Shown here piece by piece: positions 1 to 42,820 of a stretch of 64,000 nucleotides of DNA. Location of the stretch: assembly GCA_052327205.1 (NCBI GenBank), contig CM126231.1, forward strand, positions 9,982,001-10,046,000, in the 5' to 3' direction. The notes beneath the pieces were generated by a model, which saw only the letters and a list, made by a program, of their open reading frames with translations, ran no database searches and had not been told where the DNA came from. Position 1 is the first letter of the stretch. Each line of letters begins with the position of its first letter. The stretch comes from Somniosus microcephalus. Taxonomy: Eukaryota. Made by a program: the position numbers and the translations under genes.

Positions 1-426
1 TCCATTACTGAACTGCGACCTCCCTTGAGGCACACTATTTATCTTGTTTCATAAAAGTCTTGTGTAGCGTGCGTCACATTTTAAATGCATGCGTGGCACT
101 GTAACATCGCTCACATTCTTCTGATTGGCCCACTTTGTCACAATCTGCCTACTTCACCGTCACTATCACTCTCATAAATCGGCACAAATTTCAACCTACC
201 ATGGGCAGGCAGCACCACAGGAGATCCCGTAGCAGGGCACATTTGGTAGAAGTAACAGTGATAATGTTACAACTCCGTGCCTGTCAATCGCCAACAAGAG
301 GGATAATTGGGTGTGTTCTTATTTGATGAAGGGTCCGGTTAAGTGGCTCTTGAACGGAGATCCATAATCTCCATGTCCCTCTTCCCTCCCCCGCCCCACA
401 CCAATCCTGCTTAATTTATTAATTAA

Positions 427-33444: not shown

Positions 33445-34572
33445 ATATCAATGAACTGGTCAGGTGGGCAGAATAGTGGCAAATGGAAATGTGATGAAAT
33501 ATGTCATTCATCAGACTCTGTAGTTAACTACATATATTGTATTGCCTGCTCCGGTGTTTTACCTTGTATTGTATATAGTGCACCGCCCCCTTTGTGTGTC
33601 AGCTCCGCCCATACCTGGCCCTACTTAAGACAAGCCCAGGCTTGTCTTGCAGCAGAACAGCAGAAGCTAGGTGAAGACACAGGCATCTTTCTTTGCTAAT
33701 AAAAGCCTTGTTTTATTCAGTTAACTTTGAGTCTTGAAGTTATTGAGGCGCATCAGGAAATCAATCCGGAGAAGTGTGAGGTAATGCATTTGGGGAGGGC
33801 TAACAAGGCAAAGGAATACACAATAAATGGTAGGACACTGAAGTGTAGAGGAACAAACGGACCTTGGAGTGCAGGTCCACAGATCCCTGAAGGCAACAGG
33901 CCAGGTAGATAAGGTGGTTAAGAAGGCAGATGGAATACTTGCCTTTATTAGCCGAGGCATGGAATACAAGAGCAGGGAGGTTATGCTTGAACTGTATAAA
34001 ACACTAGTTAGGCCACAGCTAGAATACTGCGTGTAGTTCTGGTCACCACATTACAGGAAAGATGTGATTGCACTAGAGAGGGTGCAGAGGAGATTTACAA
34101 GGATGTTGCTGGGAGTAGAGAATCTTAGATATGAGGAAAGACTGGATAGGCTGGGTCTGTTTTCCTTGGAACAGAGGAGGCTGAGGGGAGACCTTATTGA
34201 GGTGTATAAAATTATGAGGGGCATAGATAAAGTGGATAGAAAGGACCTATTTCCCTTAGCAGAGGGGTCAAAAACCAGGGGGCACAGATTTAAAGTAATT
34301 GGTGGAAGGTTTAGAGGGGATTTGAGGGGAAATTTCTTCACCCAGAGGGTTGTGGGTGTCTGGAACTCACTGCCTGAAAGGGTGGTAGAGGCAGGAACCC
34401 TAACCACATTTAAAAAGTACTTGGATGTGCACTTGGGATGCTGTAACCTGCAGGGCTACGGACCAAGAGCTGGGAAGTGGGATTAGGCTGGATAGCACTT
34501 TGTCGGCCGGCGCGGACACGATGGGCCGAAATGGCCTCCTTCCGTGCTGTAACTTTCTATGATTCTATGATT
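33445..34572 (+). mobile_element. CR1 3' fragment split by a solo LTR
   Basis: EKCEVMHLGR and LERVQRRFTRM..WNSLP peptides; TTCTATGA tail. Confidence 0.88.
33490..33755 (+). mobile_element. Gypsy solo LTR, sister family of the 34826-42101 element
   Basis: TGTGATGAAATAT...TTATTGAGGCGCATCA, 5-bp TSD GGAAA; shares termini and GCTCCGCCCATACCTGGCCC with the full-length element LTR. Confidence 0.88.
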
Positions 34573-35124
34573 TCATTACCAGCAATCTGAGCACCTCAGG
34601 GAACAGAAGGTTACAGTGAAAAGGTGAAACCTGACACCGTCTGCGAAAATCTTTAAAAGTGCTTGAATATTTAATTCAAGATGACCTGGAGCCGAGTAAT
34701 TCAAGTCTTGCCACGATTTAATTGGAAGGCATCAAACTTTCAGAGCACCAGGTCAGTCCGAAGTGATGCGCAGAATATTTTTGATTCTTAACTAGTGCCG
34801 TTAGGTAAAATTCAGAAAGAATAATTGATGTGCCTCAATAATTCTGAGACTCGATGTTAGCAAAAGAAAACAAGGCTTTTATTAACTTAGAAGGTAACAC
34901 GTAGTGGAGAGAGGTATCTTCCATCCGGAGGGCTGCAGTACTGGATATGAGGCCAGACTGAGCTTGCTTACATAGGGGCCAGGTATGGGCGGAGCCCTAC
35001 ACACAACACATTCCAATATACAATACAATGGTGAGGAAACGGAACTGGGGGAAGGGAAATGAAACTGAAACCGACCACAGTCACAGGCCGTGATGAATGG
35101 AATATTTCATCACATTCACCCCTT

Positions 35125-36066
35125 CTATAGATTTAGTCTGTTCGGGGGTTTGATAGTCCTCTGCGACCGACGTGGCTGTTGCGGTGCCGCGGGTGTCGGC
35201 TGGGTGTCCCTGGTAGCCTCCTGGGTCTCTGCCGGGGGTGCCGCCAGGGTTGTTGAAGGGGTAGTTGGTGGGGGTGCCGTTGGTCAATGTTCTTCCGGGG
35301 GTGATGAAAGAGTAGTGGGTGGGTAAGAGTTGCTGCGATCGTTGTCGCTGCTATCGCCGTGGTTGTTGTCGATGCCGGCTGGGGCGACGTCTTTTATGGA
35401 CATGGTGTCCTCCCTTCCGTCGGCGTGCCGGACATATGCGTATTGGGGGTTGGCGTGGAGTAGGTACACTGGCTCCACGAGAGGGTCCGTCTTGTGGCCC
35501 CTCACATGCCTTCGCACGAATACCGGACCTGGGGTGGAGAGCCATGACGGCATGGATACGCCTGAGGTGGATTTCCGGGGAAAGACAAACATTCGTTCAT
35601 GAGGCGTGGCATTAGTGGTAGTACACAATAGCGACCGTATCGAATGGAGCACATCCGAGAGGACTTCCTGCCAGCGGGAGATAGGGAGGCCCTTGGTCCT
35701 TAGAGCTAGAGTGACTGCTTTCCATACTGTCCCGTTCTCTCGCTCCACTTGGCCGTTACCCCGGGGGTTGTAGCTGGTGGTACGGCTCGTGGCGATCCCC
35801 CTGGACAGCATGTACTGGCGTAGCTGTTCACTCATGAAGGACGCCCCCCTATCCGTATGGATGTAGCTCGGCATACCGAACAGGCAGAACAGGCTGTTGA
35901 GGCATTTAATGACCGTGGCGCTGGTCATGTCTGGGCAGGGGAAGGCGAATGGGAACCGGGAGTATTCGTCCACAATGTTCAGGAAGTAAACATTGCGGTC
36001 GACGGACGGGAGGGGGCCCTTGAAATCTAAGCTGAGCCGCTCAAAGGGCCGTGTAGCTTTGATTAA
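35125..36066 (-). pseudogene. Gypsy integrase core and C-terminus
   Basis: LSLDFKG, HTDRG, NGQVERENG (DDE); in-frame TGA at 35284-86, then the frame continues to PRRSQRTIKPPNRLNL* ending at the PPT. Confidence 0.92.
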
Positions 36067-38963
36067 ACATAGAAACATAGAGATAGGAACAGGAGTAGGC
36101 CATTCGGCCCTTCGAGCCTGCTCCGCCATTCAATGAGATCATGGCTGATCTTCGTCTGAGATCATAGCTGATCTTACCAGTTCAGTACCCCGTCCCCGCC
36201 TTTTCTCCGTAACCCTTAATCCCCTTAGCCTTCAGAAATATATCCAATTCTCTCTTGAAAATATTTATTGAATTAGCCTTCGCAGCCCTCTGTGGCAGGG
36301 AATTCCACAGGCTCACCACTCTTTGAGTGAAGAAATTCTTCCTCATCTCTGTTTTAAATGATTTGCCCGCTATTTTTAGACTGTGGCCCCTGGTTCTGTG
36401 CTCCCCGGCCATTGGAAACATTCTCTCTGAATTCAGCCTGTCCAGGCCTGCCATAATTTTATATGTTTCGATGAGATCCCCTCTCAATCTTCTAAACTCC
36501 AGTGAGTACAAGCCCAAACTATTTAATCTCTCTTCGTAGGTCATTCCCGCCATTCCAGGTATCAGCCTGGTGAATCGCCGTTGCACTCTTTCCATGGCAA
36601 GAACATCCTTCCGCAGATGGGGCGACCAAAACTGTACACAATACTCCAGATGCGGTCTCACCAACACCTTGTACAGCTGTAGTAAGGTATCCCTATTCCT
36701 ATACTCGAACCCCCTTGATATGAAGGCCAACATACCATTTGCCTTCTTAATCGCCTGTTGCACCTGCATGCTCTCCTTCAGTGACTGGTGCACAAGAACA
36801 CCCAGGTCCCTCTGCACTTCCCCATCTCCCAATCTATTGCCGTTTAGATAATAATCTACCCTCCTGTTTTTACCCCCAAAGTGGATAACCTCGCATTTAT
36901 CCACATTATAGTGCATCTGCCACGTATCCGCCCATTCCCCCAACCTGTCCAAATCGCACTGTAGCCTCCTGACATCCTCATCAGAGCCCACCCCTCCTCC
37001 TAGTTTAGTGTCGTCAGCGAATTTGGAAATATTGCATCCAATTCCCTGATCCAGATCATTTATATATATTGTGAACAGCTGGGGTCCCAGGACAGATCCT
37101 TGCGGCACCCCGCTGGTCACTGCCTGCCACTCCGAAAACGAGCCGTTTATTCCAACTCTCTGTTTTCTATCCGCCAGCCAGTTCTCTATCCACGTTAATA
37201 CTTTGCCCCCAATCCCATGAGCCTTAATTTTGCATGATAATCTTTTGTGTGGAACCTTATCGAAGGCTTTCTGGAAGTCAAGGTACACCACATCCACTGG
37301 CTCTCCCCCATCTATTTTACCAGTTACTTCCTCAAAAAATTCCAGCAGATTAGTCAAACACGATTTACCCTTTGTAAATCCATGTTGACTCTGTCCGATC
37401 CTTTCCCCATTTGTCAAGTGCTCCGCTATTTTATCCTTAATAATGGACTCTAGCATTCTGCCCACAACCGATGTAAGGCTTACTGGTCTATAATTCCCTG
37501 CTTTCTCTCTACCCCCATTTTTAAATATTGGGGTAACATTAGCTACCCTCCAATCCACGGGTACTGTTCCCGAGTCAATGGAGTTCCGGAAGATGATCCT
37601 TAGAGCATCTGCTATCTCCAGGGCCACCTCCTTAAGTACCCTAGGATGTAGTTTATCAGGCCCCGGGGATTTGTCGGCCTTCAGTCCCCTCAACTTACCC
37701 AGCACCATATCCCTAGAGATACTAATTTCTGTCAGCTCCTCCCTCTCATTAGTCCCTATATTTGCCGATATTCCTGGGAGGTTATTTGTGTCCTCCTTTG
37801 TGAATACAGAACCAAAGTATGAGTTTAATTGGTCTGCCATTTCCTTATTCTCCATTATATATTCTCCCGAATCGGACTGCAAGGGACCGACTTGGGATTT
37901 TACCAGTCTTTTCCTCCTGATATACCGATAAAAGCTTTTGCAGTCTGTCTTTATGTTTGCTGCAAGTTTACTTTCGTATTCTATTTTCCCCTTCCTGATT
38001 AATCCCTTTGTCCTCTTTTGCTGTATCTTGTACTGCCCTCAATCTTCCGGTCTGGTGCTTTTTTTTGCCAGTTGATATGCCCTTTTTTTTTATTTTATGC
38101 TGTCCCTAATTTCCCTCGTTATCCACGGTTGAGTCACCTTTTTAGGTTTATTTTTGTGCCAAACCGGTATAAACATGTTCTGGAATTCTTCCATTCTATC
38201 TTTGAATGCTTGCCATTGTCTATCCACTGTCAATCCCCCCAGAAACACCACCCAATCAATCTTACCCAATTCCCGTCTCATACCCTCGTAATTCCCTTTA
38301 TTTAAGTTCTGGACCTTAGTCTCTGATTCAATTTCCTCACTCTCCATCTCGACTGAGAGCTCGATCATATTATGATCGCTCTGACCCAAGGGGCCTCGTA
38401 CAAGAAGATTGCTGATAAGTCCCTTCTCATTGCACAATACCCAGTCTAAAATGGCCTGATCTCGAGTCGGCTCCTCGACATATTGGTCCAGATAACCGTC
38501 CCGAAAACATTCCAGGAATTCCTCCTCCTCAGAATTTTTACTAGTTTGGGTAGTCCAATCAATATGTAAATTAAAGTCACCCATGATGACAGCTGTGCTC
38601 TTATCGCACGCTTCTCTAATTTCCCTTTTTATGCCTTCCCTCACCTCCATATTACTATTTGGAGGCCTATATATCACACCCACTAACGTTTTCCTCCCCT
38701 TGCTATTTCTCATTTCTACCCATACAGATTCCGTTTCATCCGAGTTAATATCCTTCCTTTCCATTGCATTAATCCCCTCCTTTACCAGCAATGTTACCCC
38801 ACCTCCCCTACCTTTTTGCCGATCCTTCCTAAATATTGTATATCCCTGGATGTTAAGTTCCCAGCCTTGCCCACCCTGCAGCCACGTTTCTGTAATCCCA
38901 ATCAAATCATACTTGTTTACCTCTATTTCCACAACTAATTCATCCACCTTGTTCCTAATGCTT
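36067..38963 (-). mobile_element. CR1 LINE with nearly complete ORF2 (APE endonuclease plus RT) inserted in Gypsy integrase
   Basis: ORFs 38090-38947 (GITETW, GDFN, SDH) and 36182-37882 (PGPD, DFQKAFD, FADD) are in the same frame, separated by two stops (38090-92, 38039-41). Confidence 0.95.
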
Positions 38964-41786
38964 CTTGGCTCTATCTGGGCAGTAGAACCAAGGCTTGCAC
39001 TCAGCGCAAGTGCGGCAGTTCCTGGTCAGAGACCGAACTTCCTCAATCGAGTAGGGTAAGTTACGGGACTTTATGAAGTGGAACAGCCGCGTGACCCCTG
39101 GGTGGCAGAGGTCGTTGTGGAGGGTCTGTAGCCGATCCCCGGTGGCGCTGGCACACATCCCTCATGAGAGGGCGTCAGGGGATTCGTTAAGGGCCCCTGG
39201 CCGGTAAATGATGTCATACTCGAAGGTGGAGAGCTCGATCCGCCACCTAAGAATCTTATCATTTTTAATCTTCCCCCTCTGTTTATTATTGAACATAAAC
39301 GCTACCGACCGCTGGTCGGTAAGTAGGGTGAAGCGTTTGCCGGCTAGGTAGTGGCGCCAGTGGCGCACTGCCTCCACGATGGCTTGGGCCTCCTTTTCCA
39401 CGGAGGAGTGTCTGATCTCGGGCCCTTGGAGGGTCCTCGAGAAGAAAGCTACGGGCCGCCCCGCCTGGTTGAGGGTGGCCGCCAAGGCGAAGTCAGACGC
39501 ATCACTTTCCACTTGAAATGGAGTGTTCTCGTCCACTGCCTGTAGCGTGGCCCGCTCAATATCCTGCTTAATGCTTTTGAAGGCGGCGTGGGCCTCAGCA
39601 GAGAGCGGAAAAGAGGATGCTTTCAAGAGGGGGCGGGCTTTGTCGGAGTATTTGGGGACCCATTGGGAATAATAAGAAAATAACCCCAGGCACCTTTTCA
39701 GGGCTTTGGGAGTGTTGGGCAGGGGCAGCTCCCGTAGGGGGCGCAATCGGTCGGGGTCTGGTCCGATTTCCCCATTCTCCACCACGCTGCCTAGTATGCA
39801 GAGGCGCGTGGTGTTGAAAACGCACTTGTCCTCGTTGTAGGTGAGGTTGAGTTTTTGTGTGGTTTCCAGGAACCTCTCGAGGTTCAAGTCGTGATCCTGC
39901 TGGTTGTGACCGCAGATGGTGACGTTGTCGAGGTAGGGGAAGGTTGCCTGCAAGTGGTGGTCATCGACCATGCGGTCCATCTCCCTCTGGAAGACCGAGA
40001 CCCCATTCGTCACCCCAAAGGGGACTCTGAGGAATTGGTAGAGGCGTCCGTTCGCCTCGAAGGCGGTGTACGGGCGGTCCTCTGGTCTGATAGGGAGCTG
40101 GTGGTATGCTGACTTGAGGTCGATGGTGGAGAACACCCGGTATTGGGCGATTTGGTTCACCATTTCTGATATGCGGGGTAGCGGGTAGGCGTCTAGTTGG
40201 GTGTACCTGTTGATCGTTTGGCTATAGTCGATCACCATCCGTTTCTTCTCGCTACCCCTTACCACTACCACTTGGGCGCGCCACGGGCTGTTGCTGCGTT
40301 CAATAATGCGCTCCCTCAGCAGCCTGTCCACCTCGGTCGCGATAAACCGCCTGTCCTCCCAGCTGTACCTCCTGCTTTTGGTCGCTATTGGCTGGCAGTT
40401 AGGGGTAAGGTTCGCGAATAGCGAAGGCGGCTTTGCCTTCAGGGTAGCCAGACCGCACACTGTGAGGGGCGGCTGGGACCCACCGTACTTGAGCGTGATG
40501 CTTTGGTGGTTGCACTGGAAATCCAGGCCCAAGATCACGCTCGCACATAGATTCTTCATGATTAATACTTTAAAATTATCATATACAGTTCCGTTAACGG
40601 ACAATTGTACCGTGCAGTAACCCAGAATGGTCGATGTCTGGATTTTATCAGCCATAGAGATGGTGCCCTGAGTAGGGACCACCTTTAGGGAGAGTTGTTG
40701 TGCCAGTTCAGGGTGGATAAAACTCTCCGTGCTTCCACTGTCCATTAAACATTTAACCCTGCACCCGTTTACCTCGATGTCCACCATTGATTTGGATAGC
40801 GGGTGCGGCCTGGTCTGGTCCACTGTGACCGATGCCACTGTAGGGCCCTGATCGAGACAAGATGGCGTCCACGCTGTCTGCTCATAAGATGGCAGACCCC
40901 ACGAGGTCGGGCAAGATGGCGTCCAAGATGGCTGCTCCCACAGCGCGCACGCGGCGGTGGCGGGTTTTCCGGCGGTTGGTTTTCCGGCGGGGTTCCCTCT
41001 GCACACCTTCCCGAAGTGCCCCTTCTTACCGCACTTAAAGCAGGTGGTGCCTTTCGCCGGGCACAGGTTTCTGGTGTGCTTTGGCTGCCCGCAGAAGTAG
41101 CAGTTGGGTCCCCGATGCGTCGCGGCTGTCGTAGGGCTTCTGGGGGGAGAGCGGGGCCCCGACGGTGTCGGGCTGCCGGGCGGGGAAGATGCCTTCCAAG
41201 ATGGCGGCGCCCTTGGTGCACACGTGGCGGCGTGGACGGCGCGGGCTGAAGAGTAGGCGTCCGAGTTTCTCTGGGCCACATCCAGGGATCGCGCGGTGTC
41301 CGCAGCCTGTTTCAGGTCCAATCCCGTTTTTTCCAACAGTCTTTGCCGGATGTAAGTGGAGCTGAGGCCTGTGATAAAGACATCGCGAACAAGCTCGTCA
41401 GTGTACACTGCGGCTTTTACATCTCGGCACTTGCAGTCTTTGCCAAGCATTTTCAGGGTGCCTAGGAACTCCTCCACCGATTCCCCAGGTCGCTGTGCGC
41501 GAGTAGCGAGCAGATGCCTAGCATACACCTCATTCGTAGGCTGCTGGTAATGCACCTTTAAGATGTCGCAGGCGGCCAGGTACTTGTCGGCGTCTTGGAT
41601 GAGGGGGTAAACCCGGTGGCTTACCCAATTCCGCAGAATTCCGAGTTTCACACTCGCAGCGTCTTTGACGGCTGCGGAATTGTCCAGGAAGAATTCCATA
41701 CACATAAACCAGTGTCCGAAGCGTGCTGATGCGTCCGGAGCATGCTGATCCAAATCCAAACGTTCGGGTTTCAGGAGTTGATCCAT
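38964..41786 (-). pseudogene. Gypsy gag-pol, 5' part (Gag, protease, RT, RNase H, integrase Zn finger)
   Basis: Two CCHC knuckles (CYFCGQPKHTRNLC, CFKCGKKGHFGKVC), LMDSGS, RT IDLKSAYHQ/PFG/YLDN, RNase H SDASD, HNDLCHPG..CRTC; in-frame TGA at 39162-64. Confidence 0.93.
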
Positions 41787-42134
41787 TGTGTTGAAAAATA
41801 AGTTCATAAAATTGATGTGCCTCAATAATTCCGAGACTCGATGTTAGCGAAAGAAAACAAGGCTTTTATTAACTTAGAAGGTAACACGTAGTGGAGAGAG
41901 GTATCTTCCATCCGGACGGCTGCAGTACTGGATATGAGGCCAGACTGAGCTTGCTTACATAGGGGCCAGGTATGGGCGGAGCCCTACACACAACACATTC
42001 CAATATACAATACAATGGTGAGGAAACGGAACTGGGGGAAGGGAAATGAAACTGAAACCGACCACAGTCACAGGCAGTGATGAATGGAATATTTCATCAC
42101 AATAATCACTGGCACCATTTCATAAGCTGTGCAA

Positions 42135-42820
42135 GATATTAAAGGGAACTGATAGAGCAGCACGGTGGCATAGTGGTTAGCACTGTTGCCTCACAGCGCC
42201 AGGGACCCGGGTTCGAATCCGGTCTCGGGTGACTGCCTGTGTGGAGTTTGCACATTCTCCCCGTGTTTGCGTGGGTTTCCTCCGGGTGCTCCGGTTTCCT
42301 CCCACAGTCCAAAGATGTGCGGGTTAGGTTGTTTGGCTATGATAAATTGACCCTTAGTGTTAGGGGGATTAAATACGTGGGGTTACGGGGATAGGGTGGG
42401 ATATGTGTTGGTGTAGGTGTTACGGGGATCGGGTGGGATATGTTTCGGTGCAGGCTCGATGGGCCGAAATGGCCTCTATCTGCACTGTGGGGTTTCTGTG
42501 ATTTCTGTGATAGAGAGAAACTATTTCCGCTGGTTGGGGAATCTAGGACTAGGGGGCAGAGTCTAAAAATTAGAGCCAGACCTTTCAGGAGTGAAATTCG
42601 GAAACACTTCTACACACAAAGGGTGGCAGAAGTTTGGAACTCTCTTCCGCAAACTGATGCTAGATCAATTGTTAATTTTAAATCTGAGATTGATAAATTT
42701 TTGTTAACCTAAGGGACATGGGGCAAAGGCGGGTATATGGAGTTAGGCCGCAGATCAGCCATGATCTCATTGAATGGCGGAACAGGCTCGAAGGGCTGAA
42801 TGGCCTCCTCCTGTTCCTCT
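42135..42820 (+). mobile_element. CR1 3' fragment split by a V-SINE
   Basis: EKLFPLVGESRTRG..WNSLP peptide. Confidence 0.8.
42157..42510 (+). mobile_element. V-SINE (HE1-like), full length
   Basis: Near-identical to 427-780; TGATAGA repeated at both ends. Confidence 0.9.

Follow-up and report, generated by a model that had tools for sequence, protein, structure and literature searches.

Self-priming of reverse transcription has so far been shown in yeast, for Tf1, and among Gypsy elements it has been tied to the Tf1/sushi group. Levin reportedly found in 1996 that the Tf1 self-primer is cut by RT/RNase H. PMC6317226 treats self-priming as established for Tf1 and as a prediction for sushi, Tcn1, and TAR elements. 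In the Tf1/sushi geometry, the RNA uses its own 5' end as the primer (bioRxiv 2022.12.06.519325, PMC4600332, PMC5341516), and Tf1 cDNA was reported to keep the primer-binding site (PBS) as a DNA copy at its 3' end (PMC11042837). We analyzed a window of 64,000 nucleotides (the whole stretch of DNA under study) from Somniosus microcephalus, below called the host. A first-pass annotation had noticed in it a Gypsy element whose leader was complementary to the poly(A) signal region of its own LTR, and had proposed that the resulting helix self-primes minus-strand synthesis, blocks premature polyadenylation, or both.

The element lies on the minus strand. Its 5' LTR (41813..42101, 289 nt, TG...CA, ending in CATCA) differs at 4 positions from the 3' LTR (34826..35114, 289 nt), and the two are flanked by a 5-bp target-site duplication, ATTAT (42102..42106, with the partner copy at 34821-34825). 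A GC box (41981-41974) and a TATA-like TATGTAAG (41961-41954) form a putative promoter. A single spacer base, A (41812), separates the LTR-terminal CA from the leader, the putative PBS (41799..41811). The following frame (39162..41786) encodes gag with two CCHC motifs, protease, RT, and RNase H, with a stop codon after RNase H. The zinc-finger part of the integrase comes next (38967..39161; Pfam Integrase_H2C2, E 2e-5, just under the cut-off), and its core and C-terminal part (35284..36064) lie beyond a LINE with endonuclease and RT (36065..38966, boundaries approximate). This LINE is broken by stop codons and has the same orientation as the Gypsy element that it interrupts. The polypurine tract AGAAGGGGTGAA (35115..35126) adjoins the 3' LTR, which is bordered by host DNA, so that the arm/PBS duplex described below cannot form there. 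A solo LTR of a sister family, with the arm TTTGCTAATAAAA and a GGAAA target duplication, lies on the plus strand at 33490..33755.

The LTRs, target-site duplication, polypurine tract, and domain order PR-RT-RH-IN are those of Ty3/Gypsy (Metaviridae), and the best match among solved structures was the Ty3 RT (E 2e-48). No chromodomain or SH3_Tf2-1 domain was found in the integrase of the window or, at E 0.05, in any of 8 long homologues. Two CCHC motifs were present in 116 of 120 homologues; Tf1/sushi chromoviruses usually have one in gag, and two are a Mag-like trait (PMC2577118). The RT-RH region was ~30% identical to that of elements from the same genome that we call sushi-like, a label inferred from their SH3_Tf2-1 domain and 11-bp self-primer. 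Ten elements bearing SH3_Tf2-1 formed a separate long branch in a quick tree without an outgroup (SH-aLRT 100). Judged by its domains and RT, the element is a non-chromovirus Gypsy and not a Tf1/sushi member. Assignment to Cigr-1/Mag is a lead, as the comparison was with published descriptions; the likeness consists of the two CCHC motifs, a single gag-pol frame of ~1200 aa, the lack of a chromodomain, and a wide invertebrate spread that includes a tunicate match (PMC6238403, PMC2577118). The descriptions consulted name no PBS type for Cigr-1. The nearest named protein was from a catshark (78% over RT-RH). Homologues with 44-67% identity were named from corals, nematodes, insects, a sea cucumber, and a tunicate, and homologous proteins were also named from crustaceans and echinoderms. 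No relatives were found in the viral contigs searched. Nine GTDB bacterial genome bins contain the retrotransposon, most likely as host contamination. The RT active site reads YLDN (39935-39924) instead of YxDD. This D-to-N form was seen in 77 of 120 homologues and in 10 of 11 readable host copies, though the family is young. The matching change in Ty1 reportedly blocks transposition. Our literature search found no paper pairing 'YLDN' with 'reverse transcriptase'.

The pairing reported for the window copy was reproduced. The leader (41811-41799) is complementary at 12 of 13 positions to an LTR segment (41876-41864), here called the arm, which holds the only A(A/T)TAAA of the LTR (41870-41865), and there is no TGG-type tRNA site near the LTR end. 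When the 289-nt LTR was shuffled 5000 times in dinucleotide blocks, no shuffle reached a match of 12/13. The folding energy of the whole region was ordinary (z -0.66 and -0.91), and the minimum-free-energy fold of the window copy includes the arm/PBS duplex. Only this copy has the mismatch at 41805: all 29 other loci examined from 40 scored matches pair 13/13, and RNA reads of a related organism carried the pairing base in 9/9, 47/47, 103/103, and 237/239 cases. The leader that the first-pass annotation had predicted for the sister family, TTTTATTAGCAAA, was found exactly at all 8 of the 5' LTRs among 30 loci. The predicted fold also contains a second stem (41819..41863; GCCTTG at 41863-41858 with TGAGGC at 41824-41819) that begins at the putative cut site between 41864 and 41863, where the arm (41864..41876), the predicted 3' end of a self-primer, ends.

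The pairing is real and lineage-wide. A junction pattern matched the host genome at least 17,359 times, versus 9 times for the reversed control; the pattern fixes the first 7 leader bases, and the informative part is the remaining bases. A perfect duplex of 13-14 bp with family-specific letters was present in 28 of the first 30 loci picked by the leader pattern. Among further host loci with a leader match (L212-L231; none for L228), 18 of 20 had 13-14 bp and the other two 10-11 bp. Variants fetched by the leader alone were complementary to their own LTR. Relatives from metagenomes, which were found by protein and are thus unselected for the leader, showed the same layout. We clustered 142 gag starts at 80% into 39 clusters, of which 34 remained after 4 false starts and 1 duplicate were removed. 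A duplex of ≥11 bp was present in 29 of these 34, whereas false starts inside the ORF gave 4-8 bp. Of the 5 clusters lacking such a duplex, 3 look decayed and 2 show none.

Complementarity was kept across families with different letters, as the covariation test proposed in the annotation demanded. We selected 35 families that have the duplex, taken from this genome and from metagenomes. In this set, self-pairing extended over 11-18 bp, compared to a cross-family median of 3 bp, with ≥11 bp in 10 of 1190 cross pairs. The arm typically ends in WAAA before RCC, and the PBS starts one base after CA. We then scored 39 arm pairs anchored on the flanks only (4 mis-anchored rows were dropped, and 19 loci lacked anchors). 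Arm positions -4 to -13 contained 370 Watson-Crick pairs, 18 mismatches, and 2 G-U pairs, and pairing beyond -15 dropped to 53 of 156. The second stem, RCCW..WGGY, was present in most of the 35 families, with 29 G-U among 147 pairs, figures that concern short stems and are given without a chance control. An arm/PBS duplex nearly free of G-U next to a small stem rich in G-U fits a PBS that is rewritten by primer copying, not one maintained by selection alone. When folds began at -66, the helix was not favoured in 2 of the 35 families (P 0.40 and 0.01). A third duplex, over the start codon, would complete the three-duplex 'pretzel' of Tf1-type self-priming; in the 35 families its energy was -8.2 kcal/mol for self pairs and -7.3 kcal/mol for cross pairs, with 6 of the 35 in the top decile, and it found no clear support. 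In one subfamily (6 loci), the PBS complement has a fixed length of 18-20 nt and the leader after it is altered.

The position of the RNA start separates two forms of self-priming. In the first, a classic Tf1-type arrangement, RNA starts at the arm, the primer is its first 11-14 nt, and AAUAAA lies there by chance. The sharp upstream edge of the arm at a fixed TTC|T in host families agrees with this, as do the A at -11 in 26 of 35 families, the G at -10 in 27 of 35, and a duplex whose length is not far from that of sushi-like elements (11 bp). The promoters of host families do not. Their GC box and TATA lie 70-85 nt upstream of the arm's start, and in sister families TATAAA or TACTTAAG lies 83-98 nt upstream of the arm's 3' end, which is too far for an RNA start at the arm. 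As a control, we examined ten SH3_Tf2-1-bearing elements from the same genome. Seven had a self-primer duplex of 10-11 bp located ~150-155 nt from the PBS, and 5 of those 7 had a TATA-like match 30 nt upstream of the primer; AATAAA was found in the primer at 0 of the 7. The remaining control elements gave one 6-bp match and two LTR calls that hit a tandem repeat. The genome contains many sushi-like elements that combine an 11-bp self-primer with long open frames (10,196 first-look SH3_Tf2-1 candidates).

Over-copied relics provided a second line of evidence on the RNA start. One locus with a 51-bp duplex was the first aberrant copy found. It belongs to a class whose PBS runs on into the reverse complement of LTR sequence lying upstream of the arm (193 matches versus 9 for the control). 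We examined 166 such relics, 90 for discovery and 76 as a hold-out obtained with two narrower patterns after the prediction had been noted. The whole left LTR was kept in 97 of the 166; 22 of these reach the LTR start, 23 stop within 24 nt, and 52 stop in between. A TATA-like match, called by regular expression, was present in 46 of the 52 intermediate relics and absent from 6; two host families (L065 variants and L216) often have no TATA. Relic ends were at or downstream of TATA+28 in 39 of the 46 and upstream in 7. The interval TATA+28..33 held 8 of 21 ends in the discovery set and 8 of 25 in the hold-out, or 16 of 46 overall (15 of 44 after merging two hold-out pairs that are probably single events each). 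The hold-out pile-up had a p of 2e-4 against a uniform distribution over -20..+65. The pile-up tracks TATA and not the arm, falling at about -51..-56 where TATA is at -84 and at -63..-67 where TATA is at -94..-98. Past the stop, most relics resume in internal element sequence.

Because RNA has an edge at TATA+30 and DNA does not, the simplest reading of the relics is that plus-strand synthesis copies an attached RNA primer toward the cap and then mis-transfers. Identical ends would arise if a second RNA, still intact, served for the priming of plus-strand DNA; taken alone, the relics thus locate the RNA start without proving a covalent primer. The 22 relics with full U3 need another route, either plus-strand DNA annealing to the 3'-LTR arm or folding back. 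Of 39 left-truncated relics, 5 begin within 3 nt of the putative cut, and because the A-run gives microhomology there, they were not counted as evidence. On the window copy, the interval in which over-long PBS copies of several families cluster corresponds to 41928..41933, which places the probable RNA start near 41931. In two RNA runs from the related organism, reads did not accumulate at the inferred start, at the cut, or at a poly(A) site, and no poly(A) tails were present among the loose read ends shown; both runs were dominated by solo-LTR read-through.

With relic ends clustering at TATA+28..33 in two sets, we consider an RNA start at the arm unlikely. An 11-nt primer at the RNA 5' end had been entertained for the host families and was dropped, as TATA spacing and relic ends speak against it. 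Non-host families have no TATA at a fixed distance, and their TTAGT motif at -13..-9 is similar to the Drosophila initiator (PMC3601003); these invertebrate members may start their RNA at the arm, as Tf1 does.

A less probable explanation is that the helix acts mainly as an HIV-like hairpin hiding AAUAAA at the 5' LTR while something else primes. The HIV poly(A) hairpin occurs at both RNA ends, and HIV primes with a tRNA. Here the partner strand is the PBS, which is outside the LTR, so the helix can form at the 5' end only. The arm hexamer was AATAAA in 17 of the 35 families, ATTAAA in 9, and neither in 9. The helix thus contains a hexamer in 26 families, usually the only one nearby, and with a start inferred ~60 nt upstream, premature polyadenylation would be a real risk; HIV-1 offers a precedent (PMC2645353). 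However, 9 families keep the helix with neither hexamer, and the helix sits exactly where minus-strand priming must occur, with no TGG site. The contrast of 2 G-U in 390 pairs with 29 in 147 for the neighboring stem, and the relics in which the PBS continues as an R copy, also speak against this explanation, which we regard as very improbable. That the helix can form nowhere but at the 5' LTR makes poly(A) occlusion plausible, but occlusion is not the conserved core because of the 9 families without AATAAA or ATTAAA; it would be at most a secondary function. Self-priming is the better supported of the two functions originally proposed.

TGG is absent in all 35 families. The tRNA comparison called for by the annotation gave a longest match of 4-7 nt; it covered 5 distinct tRNA calls, and the case against a tRNA primer rests mainly on covariation. 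All tRNA genes found in the genome search were for Cys or Lys, with a tandem array of tRNA-Cys at ~1.6-kb spacing at C24:42.9-43.2 Mb of the genome. Priming by a tRNA, a tRNA half, or another host RNA, with an incidental LTR match, has a precedent in the half-tRNA priming of copia lineages (PMC6317226) and gains some room from the 5 tRNA calls compared, but it is hardly credible and largely refuted by the 30 distinct 11-mers among 35 families, which match the LTR of their own family and seldom that of another, by tRNA matches that stay so short, and by the lack of any Rfam family over cut-off in 41600-42200.

Self-priming, as the first-pass annotation had suggested, is supported by the lack of a tRNA site, a covarying helix at the priming position, and the over-copied relics, and we consider it highly probable that the lineage self-primes in some form. 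That it does so with an internal arm on a long (55-70 nt) 5' RNA fragment is probable, with less confidence. In the proposed mechanism, RNA would begin ~30 nt after the TATA-like box and 40-55 nt upstream of the arm, as the relic end points suggest; with a start upstream of the arm, the arm and AAUAAA lie inside R. The arm would pair with the PBS, a predicted fold for which covariation is seen, and the short RCC..GGY stem would begin right after it. By analogy with Tf1, RT/RNase H would cut at AAA^GCC to yield a 5' fragment of 55-70 nt, and the 3'-OH of this fragment, one base from the LTR end, would prime minus-strand DNA. The relics are consistent with a primer that remains attached and is copied during plus-strand synthesis. 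The PBS would then be rewritten from the arm in every cycle, which explains covariation by Watson-Crick pairs only. Copying beyond 13-14 nt would give an unpaired tail that is normally lost and is kept in ~1% of copies, usually fused to an internal site. At the 5' LTR only, this helix would also conceal AAUAAA.

Some of the relics are palindromic. Among the 22 full-length relics, 5 had a perfect 5-bp duplication on both sides, 10 continue into the purine tract in reverse complement, and 7 are at a 3' LTR, with one relic in both groups. In another family, 6 of 14 listed had matching duplications, and in three relics of this family compared by eye, both arms share copy-specific variants. We infer that such relics are the expected by-products of a plus strand ending complementary to its own R. 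The resulting mini-elements, consisting of LTR, PBS, and inverted U3 with TG..CA at both ends and a 5-bp target duplication, could pass for MITEs. In three further copies, the arm-PBS loop is inverted at the 13-bp repeat.

Self-priming itself is already known from Tf1, and the internal-arm form proposed for this lineage is a variant of it. Our literature search, outside of which lay repeat databases and key older papers so that prior notice is possible, found no report of self-priming for Mag/Cigr-type Gypsy elements or of internal-arm geometry, and, within the same scope, no fold-back LTR relics. Its occurrence in a second Gypsy lineage that is distant and highly successful (at least 17,359 junction matches here) would mean that self-priming arose again or is older than thought, and the different layout implies that a primer does not have to consist of the RNA's first bases. 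Three questions become testable: by what means RT recognizes an internal RNA junction and cleaves it, what ends PBS copying at 13-14 nt when there is no modified tRNA base, and whether priming and the choice of poly(A) site are coupled through one helix. PBS finders that rely on tRNAs will overlook the lineage, which the arm/PBS rule detects. Taken as a whole, the following scenario, no part of which appeared in the papers we searched, is tentative, at slightly under an even chance. In it, tRNA-free priming evolved in a pan-metazoan Gypsy lineage outside the chromoviruses, independently of Tf1/sushi, with one 13-nt element that serves as the poly(A) signal at the 3' LTR, as a hidden signal at the 5' LTR, and as the 3' end of a long capped self-primer retained on the cDNA, while over-copied relics record the RNA start, as well as palindromic mini-elements integrated with their own target duplication.

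Compared to known systems, the lineage resembles Tf1/Tf2 of S. pombe, Tj1, and the Tf1/sushi group in having no tRNA PBS and a PBS complementary to a stretch of the 5' LTR, and it resembles the Tf1/sushi group in an extra stem beside the primer duplex (PMC4600332, PMC5341516, bioRxiv 2022.12.06.519325). The one-base spacer after CA is common to this lineage and the sushi-like elements of the same genome. In plants, self-priming of Tcn1 (Gypsy) and of TAR, Houba, and Osr-1 (copia) was likewise inferred from PBS-LTR complementarity; Tcn1 is a Tf1/sushi relative, and no poly(A)-signal overlap or internal arm is described for these plant lineages in the available text of PMC6317226. Tf1/sushi elements have an 11-bp primer at the RNA 5' end, a TATA 30 nt upstream of it, and a loop of ~155 nt. 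In contrast, the arm of this lineage is 13-14 nt long, lies 21-68 nt from the PBS, and usually ends in the poly(A) hexamer. In the host-genome families, TATA spacing and relic end points place the arm 40-55 nt inside the inferred RNA and not at its extreme 5' end, the position that defines the Tf1 primer, and this internal arm bears out the difference in geometry that the first-pass annotation had suggested.
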